The notes beneath the pieces are model-generated. The model worked only from the letters and a program-made list of their open reading frames with translations. It was not told where the DNA came from and ran no database searches. From IMG/VR virus record IMGVR_UViG_3300023174_000007, positions 1-53,344 of that record: DNA of 53,344 nucleotides. One strand, 5' to 3'. Position numbers and translations under genes: made by a program. Origin of the DNA: a virus (lineage: Duplodnaviria > Caudoviricetes). This document shows, piece by piece, positions 42,221 to 44,308 of this stretch; positions within the stretch are counted from its first letter, which is position 1, and every line of letters begins with the position of its first letter.

Positions 42221-42481
42221 ATGGCTATTGCGCTTGTATATGACCCTCGTTATCACACATGGAACTCTTGGACGAGTCTTATGTGCGAGGCTTATGCGGC
42301 GCAACAGCTATCAATAAATACTCCCGAAGAGGAGTGGAAGCAGTGGGCGGCAGGTTTAAAGGCGATTGACCTTTTTGTCAACGAAGGTATTCCTAGCCCC
42401 TATATATATGAGAACTGGCAAGACTGGGCATCAGCACTGGTCGGAGCAGTCAATCAATCAACTGAGGAAACGGCAACATGA
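42221..42481 (+). CDS. Trp-rich hypothetical protein
   Basis: ATG 42221; W..WA...P.P.....WQDWA; coupled to the ACP gene. Confidence 0.7.
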   Translation: MAIALVYDPRYHTWNSWTSLMCEAYAAQQLSINTPEEEWKQWAAGLKAIDLFVNEGIPSPYIYENWQDWASALVGAVNQSTEETAT

Positions 42482-42759
42482 ACTTCATTGAAATATTTAA
42501 TTATGTGGCAAAGGTGGCGCGACCAGCACACGCCACAGCAACCATCGCAGAGGCGATGGAAGATGAGTTTGCGGATATTGGTTTAGATAGCCTAGATGGG
42601 CTAGTCATGCTAATGTACTTTGACGAAATCTACGGTATTGCAGACGAGGTAAGTAAAGAGTGGTCACCTAAGTCTGTCCAAGAACTCCATGACCTTGTGA
42701 TGGCTAATAAAACCAAAGAGCCTGTCTCGATGGAAGAAGTTGCGGAGATATGTAAATGA
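42478..42759 (+). CDS. acpP: Acyl carrier protein
   Basis: 93 aa, acidic; FADIGLDSLD..M...DEIYGI...SVQEL matches the ACP phosphopantetheine site (DLGxDSLD). Confidence 0.85.
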   Translation: MNFIEIFNYVAKVARPAHATATIAEAMEDEFADIGLDSLDGLVMLMYFDEIYGIADEVSKEWSPKSVQELHDLVMANKTKEPVSMEEVAEICK

Positions 42760-43865
42760 TTTATTTAACGCACTATCGTACAGCCTCTACTCAAGACGTT
42801 GAATTATTTGACGATATTATCTATCCACAAAAGGTAAATTGGTTTCCAGATACCTACAATCGAACAAAACTAGGTTTAGTCTACGTTCCCCACAAGTTGG
42901 CGGAAAAAGTACTTGACCCTGAGTTGCTTACCTATCTACGGGAAAACCCTGTAGGCAAGACTGCTTTTATTCTTGCTGGTGGCAACGCACATTTTGCTGG
43001 CATCGGTCAACGTGAGTACAAATCACGCCTGACTTACACCTACAAGTTCCTGCCATTCACGTTGACGCAGGTCTATGCGGGTCGTATTGCTCAGTCTTTT
43101 GGTGAGATGGACATGGTCACAACCGATGCTAGCGCCTGCGCATCAAGTCTTAAAGTAATGATGGATGTAACTAGCCTCATCAACTTTTATGACTATGAGC
43201 GCGTAATTGTTCTAACTGTTGAAGACGGTGTATCTAATGCTGTTTTAGAGTTCTTTGGGGACTCCAAGGCCGTACTTACTGAAAAGCAAGAACAAGAAGG
43301 TATAAAGCCATCCGCTTTCGATTCGATTAACTTTGGGTTTCGTATTGGGCAAGGAGCCGCCTTGGCAATCTTTGAATCTAGCAAAGCTGTTGCTCAACAA
43401 CAAATCAATCCTCATGCTCAATTAATGGGCGCGTACAGCGCTTCAGAGCGTTCTACCAATGCAATTGGACAATGTGAGGATGGTGAGGGGTTCATTAAAG
43501 CCATAGAAGGTGCATTGCACTATGGTAATTTAACCCCTAATGAGATTAAAATAGTAAAAACCCACGGCACTGGAACTGCGTCCAACAACAAAGCTGAAAA
43601 GAATGCTTTGAATCAAACGCTAAAAGCATTCGTTGCAACCTCGTATAAACAGAAGATTGGTCATACGATGGGTAGCAGTGGACTGCTTGAAACACTTTTA
43701 CTTTTAGATGATATTAAATCTGGTGTTGTTCCTGCAATTGCAAATCGAACCGAAAGCGATTCGGTATTCCTTTCGGATTCGACAACGCCACCGAATGGCT
43801 TGATAATGAGTCTAGCGGCTGGGATGGGAAATATCTATTCTGCCGCAATTTTTAAGGGGATGTGA
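42756..43865 (+). CDS. Beta-ketoacyl-ACP synthase (FabB/FabF-like ketosynthase)
   Basis: SACASS catalytic Cys, KTHGTGT His, K.KIGHTMGSSG His, PSAFD...GF.IGQGAA; divergent short N-terminus. Confidence 0.9.
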   Translation: MIYLTHYRTASTQDVELFDDIIYPQKVNWFPDTYNRTKLGLVYVPHKLAEKVLDPELLTYLRENPVGKTAFILAGGNAHFAGIGQREYKSRLTYTYKFLPFTLTQVYAGRIAQSFGEMDMVTTDASACASSLKVMMDVTSLINFYDYERVIVLTVEDGVSNAVLEFFGDSKAVLTEKQEQEGIKPSAFDSINFGFRIGQGAALAIFESSKAVAQQQINPHAQLMGAYSASERSTNAIGQCEDGEGFIKAIEGALHYGNLTPNEIKIVKTHGTGTASNNKAEKNALNQTLKAFVATSYKQKIGHTMGSSGLLETLLLLDDIKSGVVPAIANRTESDSVFLSDSTTPPNGLIMSLAAGMGNIYSAAIFKGM

Positions 43866-44308
43866 TGCTGGTCGATAGCAAAAAGAAAGAATTAGGTACT
43901 GAAGCAATCTTAATGATTGCCGCTCAAGAGACTAAGTCAAAATATCCCGCGTCCACAATTTACGCGGCGATGGTCAAAGAAATGAATATGCAAGGCACTT
44001 CTATAGTCCGTAACGGCAATACTCTTTTTGTTGTTCACAACGCCGAGGGGCGTGTAGGAGTGTTTCGCGCTTTAAATGCAGACACTGCTCGCAACTACCT
44101 AGAGAGTTCATACGCCTTTATTCAGGGGGCATACAAAATGGGCTTTGATACGCTTGTAAGCGAGTTTGAAGACCCAACGATTATGAACATTTTTAAAGCT
44201 ATTTCGCGCAACCCTCCGCAAGAGGGTATGGGGTATCGCGCTGAAAAGACTAACAAAGGTTTTCGCGTGACGGTCAAGTTAGGGCCAAAACGGGCTGAGA
44301 GGGAATAA
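43862..44308 (+). CDS. Hypothetical protein, possible degenerate GNAT-like fold
   Basis: 148-aa alpha/beta pattern at the syntenic position of T7 gp13-like genes; no clear acyl-CoA motif. Confidence 0.4.
   Translation: MMLVDSKKKELGTEAILMIAAQETKSKYPASTIYAAMVKEMNMQGTSIVRNGNTLFVVHNAEGRVGVFRALNADTARNYLESSYAFIQGAYKMGFDTLVSEFEDPTIMNIFKAISRNPPQEGMGYRAEKTNKGFRVTVKLGPKRAERE

Follow-up and report, generated by a model that had tools for sequence, protein, structure and literature searches.

A strict, movable pair of acyl carrier protein and ketosynthase genes in tailed phages, a candidate acyl donor for protein acylation

The acyl carrier protein and the ketosynthase

The virus record IMGVR_UViG_3300023174_000007 (Caudoviricetes) is a complete genome of 53,344 bp with direct terminal repeats, analysed here over its whole length and called the window below. 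In its late region, between a nozzle-position gene and a row of ejection-type genes, lies the pair which is the subject of this report, one gene encoding an acyl carrier protein (ACP) and the other a ketosynthase (KS). As read in the open reading frames (ORFs), and as an earlier note on this DNA had it, the nozzle gene is followed on the plus strand by a Trp-rich ORF of 86 aa (42221..42481), the ACP of 93 aa with Ser38 in a GLDSLD motif (42478..42759), a shortened, FabF-like, elongating KS of 369 aa with the decarboxylating triad Cys128-His270-His303 (42756..43865), a GNAT-fold protein of 147 aa at the position of internal virion protein A (IVP-A; ATG at 43865, end at 44308), and five ejection-type genes. 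An alternative GTG start at 43862 would give the GNAT-fold protein 148 aa, and the gene is called orf148 in what follows. From the nozzle to the first ejection gene (572 aa) the junctions are, in order, a gap of 1 nt, ATGA, ATGA, GTGA (or TGATG) and again a gap of 1 nt, that is, the overlaps and few-bp gaps described before; the four genes from the Trp-rich ORF to orf148 are probably translationally coupled, to judge from these junctions. The GC content of the ACP-KS region (0.435) is similar to that of its surroundings, and the view that the pair is long resident in the genome is supported.

The ACP motif reads DIGLDSLDG, with D37 and S38 invariant in 26 aligned homologues and the serine of the DSL signature present in 60/60 distinct homologues aligned. 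Against Pfam the protein has no match at E<=0.01, PF00550 scoring 13.3 bits under a cut-off of 20.8; this sub-threshold match falls at the ACP ORF alone in the whole genome. A profile of the 26 homologues retrieves 89 PDB sequences at E<=0.01 (best 2.7e-6), and the 60 of them that were listed are all acyl carrier proteins, one being NodF (1fh1, 7.8e-4). At the C-terminus every ACP homologue runs on past the usual ACP length (residues ~76-93 in the window protein; consensus HKTKxPxSxEEA), and the private KS or a transferase may dock on this shared extension.

The KS matches PF02801 (5.4e-15, 55.9 bits) and PF00109 (7.8e-8, 32.7 bits), both above the curated cut-off of 20.8, the latter match being limited to profile positions 124-248 so that the N-terminal half is not covered in full. 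Its best PDB profile match is FabF 1ox0 (2.7e-41), and its model (pLDDT 93.5) has FabF 4f32 as best structural match (TM 0.83, E 1.7e-24), pointing to a FabF-like thiolase fold. With bacterial FabF/KAS II the phage enzyme therefore shares the fold, the Cys-His-His triad and the N- and C-terminal KS domains of Pfam. It differs in length (369 aa vs ~410, FabF chains having 408-430 aa, hence ~40 residues shorter), in a remodelled N-terminus with a clade-specific PQxxH motif, in a remodelled C-terminal loop, and in an AGMGN motif, nearly invariant in the short-KS clade, which I take to stand at the place of the FabF gate loop GFGG. The KS tree sets the phage clade apart, at 100% support, from 8 FabF-like outgroups, and the clade is nearly absent in bacteria (see below); the earlier note had named closest homologues in ordinary fab clusters as a sign that it was wrong, and the outcome runs the other way.

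Cys128, His270, His303 and Lys298 are invariant in 30 diverse members of the clade, down to 28% identity. The KS is also the best-conserved gene of its block (in L060, for example, 78% identity vs 53% for the nozzle and 44% for orf148), and purifying selection on the ACP-KS pair is supported. This conservation bears on the proposal that the two proteins act without making any product, either as a decoy or inhibitor of host AcpS, FabD or fatty acid synthesis (FAS), or as a scaffold in morphogenesis. The remodelling seen at the N-terminus of the KS and in its C-terminal loop would suit such a role, as would two complete genomes that retain the ACP without the KS; the invariance of the cysteine, both histidines, the lysine and the DSL serine at 28-65% identity argues for catalysis instead, and makes a product-free role very improbable.

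Catalysis would need partners. Searched in all six frames, the complete genome shows no ACPS (PF01648), FabD (PF00698) or FabA/FabZ (PF07977), in agreement with the earlier note, which had missed a phosphopantetheinyl transferase, FabD, FabG and FabZ; as to FabG, none occurs among the 28/69 ORFs scanned with Pfam, no family search having been aimed at it. With the ACPS, FabD and FabA/FabZ families missing, the pair must use host enzymes, and the description of it as a dedicated ACP/KS pair reliant on host AcpS, FabD, FabG, FabZ and FabI holds.

Strict pairing and changing position among viruses

KS relatives are encoded by 394/398 pattern matches in one search of IMG/VR and by at least 547 of the 597 listed in a wider one, and form 1447 clusters in a protein collection at 90% identity. 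In a library at 50% identity there are 54 KS representatives at E<=1e-30, beyond which come KS domains of polyketide synthases and FabF-like proteins; IMG/VR scans with the single distant representatives P0268 and P0293 found no relative. Among 50,697 deposited phage records only one has a full-length KS match, the uncultured MW202545, with 62% identity and the same gene order. Samples with the cassette come mainly from lake water. Likewise, sequencing runs containing the window virus are labelled lake or freshwater metagenome, four of them holding at least half of the sampled words and one possibly being the source; no RNA run is among those listed for the neighbourhood of the cassette.

The 81 closest loci include 11 in which the KS runs off the contig end; these were dropped and the 70 with a complete KS ORF counted. 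The ACP abuts the KS in 70/70, the Trp-rich ORF and nozzle are present in 69/70 (one cut), and orf148 in 67/70 (three not covered). In a wider set of 72 new loci, found by starting from a distant member of the clade, the ACP lies directly upstream of the KS in 72/72, and the same is true of 10/10 loci with a full KS in metagenome-assembled genomes (MAGs). ACP and KS are thus a strict pair, a movable two-gene module found together in every KS locus examined.

Its surroundings vary. The tail/ejection layout of the window recurs in 33/72 loci of the wider set; in another 33/72 the cassette follows a helicase in the replication module (primase ... helicase - ACP - KS - small sigma/HTH-like ORF ... 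exonuclease - ribonucleotide reductase - DNA polymerase), where HTH stands for helix-turn-helix; 4/72 have a T7-like layout (internal virion protein - tail fibre ... ACP - KS - 269-aa ORF ... terminase), and a fourth layout, in 2/72, includes a cupin. The fixed linkage to nozzle and ejection genes that had been expected is therefore not borne out. Phages of the replication-module type are relatives of the window phage: contig G004 carries adaptor, a 420-aa protein, nozzle (623 bits), Trp-rich ORF, GNAT (141 bits) and ejection genes in that order, with ACP-KS ~20 kb away after the helicase. In the KS tree (a quick IQ-TREE run with SH-aLRT support only) the labels for window-type (A) and replication-module (B) contexts interleave, starred branches forcing at least three changes, so that the cassette has moved between sites, or been exchanged among related phages, several times. 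The tail/ejection operon is then one of several permitted sites, and location alone is no evidence of function.

The genes next to the pair change with its position. Behind the KS of replication-module phages comes a conserved ORF of ~100 aa (L114:7643-7942, L118:9375-9692, L138:4961-5272, L090:10551-10856); by eye it resembles sigma-70 region 4 or an HTH regulator, and it has no Pfam match. Two loci of the same type have a genuine FabZ after ACP-KS (L090:10130-10561 and L102, about 4201-4630; PF07977 5.8e-30, P. aeruginosa FabZ 1u1z 5.1e-36). In the T7-like phages the KS is followed by the 269-aa ORF (L084:10086-10895, also L083, L085 and L086), a relative of which, at 27% identity, stands upstream of the ACP in L087/L088. 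Its matches to rubrerythrin and to FA_desaturase_2, the acyl-ACP-desaturase family, are sub-threshold and those to designed diiron proteins weak; it may be a diiron tailoring enzyme, an assignment not relied on here.

FabZ as a neighbour raises the question of whether the pair simply serves lipid metabolism. As an auxiliary metabolic gene (AMG) module it would boost or re-tune the host type II FAS (chain length, unsaturation, supply of membrane or lipid A) and leave the virion uninvolved. The FabF-like fold and triad would fit this, as would the replication-module placement in 33/72 loci, the FabZ of two loci, and the existence of related complete genomes that live without the KS or without both genes. 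In the literature fabF, fabG and fabZ figure in a virome AMG list (PMC10653327), lone phage ACPs are called AMGs (PMC11705849, PMC5463345), and acpP-fabF-fabG is reported in host-like order from predicted roseobacter prophages (PMC8224337); the likeness of all these to the present pair lies in having FAS-type genes in phage genomes, known there from annotations only (PMC11705849, PMC5463345, PMC8224337, PMC10653327). For a mere boost, however, a private carrier is superfluous, yet wherever there is a KS there is an ACP as well. The KS clade is not recently host-derived either, close cellular homologues in ordinary metabolic loci, as expected of a host-derived AMG, being absent, and its clearly bacterial members lie in protein-acylation loci and not in fab clusters. 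The AMG module is a serious rival, if on balance an unlikely one.

A second metabolic possibility is suggested by the layout. NodF and NodE of rhizobia are a dedicated ACP and a KAS-type KS which, with the help of the housekeeping FAS, make a special chain for a dedicated acyltransferase, the acceptor being a lipo-chitooligosaccharide. The phage pair resembles them in consisting of an ACP and a KS with no other FAS gene found in the unit, in the presence of NodF among the PDB matches of the ACP profile, and perhaps in having variable neighbours of tailoring type elsewhere (the 269-aa protein, weakly diiron/desaturase-like, and the cupin). By analogy it might, through a host or phage transferase, direct a special chain to an acceptor other than a protein, for instance a glycolipid, lipid A or a small molecule that signals or inhibits. 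The likeness is one of layout; the phage KS is ~40 residues shorter than FabF, no glycosyl- or lipid-acyltransferase occurs among the 28/69 ORFs scanned, the diiron assignment is sub-threshold, and the bacterial relatives indicate protein acceptors. A route of this kind is accordingly held to be rather improbable.

Bacterial relatives, orf148 and the case for protein acylation

A scan of one genome per species for 185,579 species, made with a smaller alignment of the clade and two search patterns, which limit what is findable, returned 39 KS relatives, 11 of them in the short-KS clade. All 11 loci are from MAGs, ten with 36-71% identity over nearly full length and one (L244) a C-terminal fragment cut by the contig end. 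Most of them look like phage contigs, with GNAT or type-B markers. The bins holding the cassette are mostly Burkholderiales, which gives a host lead only, the binning of phage contigs being weak evidence. The context is clearly bacterial in two, L240 and L241, and among 400 other genomes of the same order none has such a KS at E<=1e-60.

The first of these loci (L240:7277-14361) comes from a Burkholderiales MAG with 70% GC, where its contig measures 890 kb. In order there are a histidine kinase gene and a 140-aa ORF whose sole PDB match is ApxC (1.5e-5), followed by an ACP of 93 aa and a KS of 376 aa; then come a 177-aa toxin-activating acyltransferase (TAAT; Pfam HlyC PF02794 8e-18, above cut-off; sole PDB match ApxC 4whn, 6.3e-11), a TolC-like OEP protein, a small ORF and an 807-aa RTX-repeat protein (HemolysinCabind 2e-44). 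Starts overlap in the ATGA fashion. The second locus (L241:1460-7550), from another MAG of the Burkholderiales, repeats this gene content and core order, with 43-56% identity to the first. The KS proteins of L240 and L241 are 48% and 44% identical to that of the window and form a clade (support 100) within the short-KS clade, sister to the main (A+B) phage clade in a FastTree phylogeny.

HlyC-type enzymes move acyl chains from acyl-ACP onto lysines of RTX proteins. Classical RTX-activating systems use the housekeeping ACP for this, and a private ACP with its own KS would be an addition to the scheme. The pairs of L240 and L241 are most simply read, by analogy, as supplying the donor in a system for protein acylation. 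A neighbouring case is described in PMC8510554, where CdiC, an HlyC-type homologue, appends 3-hydroxydecanoate to the delivered effector CdiA and so improves recognition of the target outer membrane. The phage pair would be like the RTX TAAT (HlyC/ApxC, PF02794) and CdiC/CdiA systems in providing an acyl-ACP donor for a protein that engages or crosses the envelope of another cell; the phage differs in having no TAAT, its candidate transferase being of the different, GNAT-fold family.

Taken together, these observations favour, with a probability of roughly 0.45, the reading in which ACP and KS supply a private acyl-ACP donor for protein acylation, the transferase and the acceptor being candidates. 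A private donor is favoured because no KS comes without its ACP, conservation extends to the catalytic residues, the tailoring partners vary with lineage, and the bacterial loci exist; use in protein acylation, more specifically, because two bacterial members of the KS clade lie between acyltransferase genes in RTX loci. Host AcpS would make holo-ACP and host FabD would load malonate; on the private carrier the phage KS would then condense malonyl-ACP and an acyl primer, the cycles being completed by FabG, FabZ and FabI of the host. The outcome would be a private acyl-ACP pool, separate from host AcpP, from which the chain might pass to a protein in the way that HlyC/ApxC-type acyltransferases draw on acyl-ACP. 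In the window phage only the GNAT-fold protein next door, at the IVP-A position, is a nearby candidate for the transferase; as candidate acceptors, the products of the downstream ejection genes lie nearest.

The protein encoded by orf148 belongs to no family by sequence. Its AF2 model (pLDDT 89) has GNAT proteins as structural neighbours (Z 10.7, rmsd 2.5 over 119 aligned residues; Z 11.5, rmsd 3.2 over 123), the best of them including the protein N-acetyltransferases RimI (Z 11.5) and HP0935 (Z 11.2), tied with other GNATs. Foldseek gives 29 matches at E<=0.001, mostly acetyltransferases, with RNase E in 3 of the 38 rows listed. ApxC 4whn is not among the best 50 neighbours in either of two lists, which rules out nothing. 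Structure matches in BFVD include entries named 'Internal virion protein A' (E ~6e-4, TM ~0.5), and the nearest named cluster in the Atlas is DUF2824 (0.93), a lead only.

Such a gene is expected at this place. PMC4819975 describes, for podoviruses, a small gene with an acetyltransferase fold downstream of tubular tail B and directly upstream of the ejection or IVP genes, and reports that IVP-A of T7 (gp13) matches acetyltransferases. In Pfam terms T7 gp13 is PF11090, while P22 gp14, directly upstream of the injection genes 7, 20 and 16, is PF11039. The window protein is like both in position, size and fold, and differs in showing no detectable sequence membership: 0/17 members of the orf148 family match PF11090 or PF11039 at E<=10, and hhalign gives a probability of 0.8% vs T7 gp13 and 0.1% vs P22 gp14. 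On position, size and fold, with no sequence relation detected, the 147-aa gene is the IVP-A-position gene of podoviruses.

Cassette and GNAT gene are genetically separable, as every combination of their presence and absence is seen. Upstream of orf148, in 78 loci fetched through its homologues, ACP and KS are both found in 58, a KS with the upstream sequence cut in 4, an ACP without KS in 3 and neither in 8, while 4 are not covered upstream and 1 lacks a complete ORF. Searches of whole records for ACP, KS and GNAT, which recovered 5/5 known holders as positive control, show that in G008 and G009, both 100% complete, the ACP adjoins the GNAT gene with no KS anywhere. The loci of this kind are L174:5090-5371, L177:5710-5991 and L158:5483-5992, where an ACP with intact DSL stands next to the IVP-A-position GNAT and the complete genome is without a KS, an arrangement that no reading fully explains. 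Loci L201 and G004 have nozzle, Trp-rich ORF, GNAT and ejection genes with nothing inserted, the Trp-rich ORF adjoining the nozzle and GNAT genes with no ACP-KS at that place. The Trp-rich ORF, whose true start (ATG 42221) is shared with relatives and which scans of Pfam and PHROG leave without a match, is thus part of the tail operon and lies outside the ACP-KS cassette. The junction between nozzle and GNAT is otherwise variable, holding the 86-aa Trp-rich ORF, or 63-aa and 107-aa ORFs (114 aa in L185), or one of 207 aa (222 aa in L158).

That orf148 is itself an acyl-ACP-dependent acyltransferase, putting the fatty chain of the private ACP on an ejection protein for insertion into the host envelope, is suggested by its adjacency to the pair here, by genomes that have lost the KS but keep the ACP beside the GNAT gene, and by a fold like that of protein acetyltransferases. 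This more specific route is doubtful, and the evidence for a virion or ejection protein as acceptor and for orf148 as transferase is thinner than that for the private donor. The predicted complex of orf148 and ACP scores 0.19 (mark 0.32), which speaks neither for nor against binding; with the 158-aa ORF of L240 the orf148 family has no significant hhalign match. As for the original proposal that the pair serves to lipidate an ejection or tail protein, the idea of lipidation gains new support from L240 and L241, in which ACP-KS lies between two TAAT-type genes in RTX loci, while its virion part is putative.

Several observations weigh against the private-donor reading. No acylated protein has been observed, and only two MAGs provide the bacterial context. 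PF02794 has a match in 0/6 phage records tested, the window included (positive control G018), and tblastn with both TAATs finds no match in the window or in 275 other loci except L241; the hhalign probability of the orf148 family with the L240 TAAT is 0.15%. GNATs carry the acyl-CoA loop Q/RxxGxG/A, and in orf148, by inspection, the sequence FRALNADTA stands in its place, with R, N and D conserved. The placement of the cassette after the helicase in 33/72 loci suggests expression earlier than that of virion genes, and FabZ as an occasional partner is equally consistent with ordinary fatty-acid synthesis. The GNAT at the IVP-A position is, moreover, a general podovirus gene (PMC4819975), of a class that most podoviruses carry without an ACP. 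Lastly, G006 (100% complete) has the GNAT gene with no KS and no ACP anywhere, and the complete T7-like genome G016 has ACP-KS with no gene of the orf148 family.

The surrounding late region and the meaning of the pair

The late region of the window begins with a Sf6-type small terminase, the large terminase, a 1561-aa protein, the portal, capsid genes and two fibre genes. It continues with an HNH endonuclease, a holin, a GH108 endolysin, an SU10-type adaptor, a 413-aa protein and the 690-aa nozzle-position protein, and ends with the Trp-rich ORF, ACP, KS, the 147-aa ORF and the five proteins of ejection type, of which the last has a muralytic N-terminus. Directly upstream of the cassette, all on the plus strand, are the tail adaptor of 211 aa (38268..38903; Pfam PF24175 SU10_adaptor, 8.1e-22), the 413-aa tail protein of the adaptor-nozzle block (38906..40147), which Pfam and PHROG scans leave without a match and which is syntenic in relatives, its homologue in MW202545 being annotated 'tail protein', and the nozzle or tubular-tail-B-position protein of 690 aa (40147..42219; phrog_3287 virion structural protein, 2.7e-24). 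In MW202545 the latter's homologue carries the annotation 'phage stabilization protein'; the name 'nozzle' is assigned by position.

Downstream of orf148, on the same strand, the first ejection/IVP-type protein (572 aa, 44310..46028), a candidate acceptor, is assigned on position only, family scans giving no match. It is followed by one of 856 aa (46032..48602), a C-terminal stretch of which matches tape-measure PHROGs (7e-6), by an ejection protein of 331 aa (48602..49597; phrog_4287 DNA ejection protein, 1.5e-4), by one of 585 aa assigned on position and synteny (49601..51358), and by an ejection protein of 570 aa with an N-terminal muralytic domain (51360..53072; phrog_3513 endolysin, 3.7e-22, residues 6-181). 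Consensus scans of region 36000-47000 found promoter-like sites at chance level (26 vs 21.7+/-5.3 in shuffles) and terminator-like sites not above chance (6 vs 9.8+/-3.2).

Some further genes of the window deserve mention. The 1561-aa ORF (14985-19670), between large terminase and portal, has no PHROG family at E<=1e-4, and a Cpn10/GroES-like protein (PF00166, 8.7e-9; 22541-22969) directly follows the portal gene. The endonuclease between the fibre and lysis genes (35686-36219) is of the HNH_3 type and has a weak AP2 domain; from its presence there it appears that the late region tolerates insertions. A 363-aa protein (10566-11657) combines an N-terminal P-loop region of ABC/AAA type with a GNAT domain at residues 235-297 (ABC_tran 1.4e-6, Acetyltransf_7 2.7e-5, Acetyltransf_1 2.4e-4); as the second acyltransferase-fold protein of the genome it is conceivably another user of acyl-ACP.

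In the excerpts returned by a literature search no account was found of a strict ACP-KS pair in phages, of its mobility or of its kinship with pairs in RTX loci, nor of protein lipidation by a phage-encoded pathway.

To sum up, protein lipidation by phages is a plausible outcome of the pair described here. If the private acyl-ACP does feed protein acylation, it would connect three subjects hitherto unlinked, the activation of RTX-type toxins, dedicated ACP/KS pairs and the acetyltransferase-fold gene at the head of the ejection module of podoviruses. The route through orf148, if true, would be a phage counterpart of RTX and CdiA lipidation and would give the IVP-A class (T7 gp13, P22 gp14) its first biochemical role. 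Should the pair instead be a lipid AMG, it would represent a distinct, virus-specific KS lineage re-tuning the membranes of abundant freshwater bacteria.

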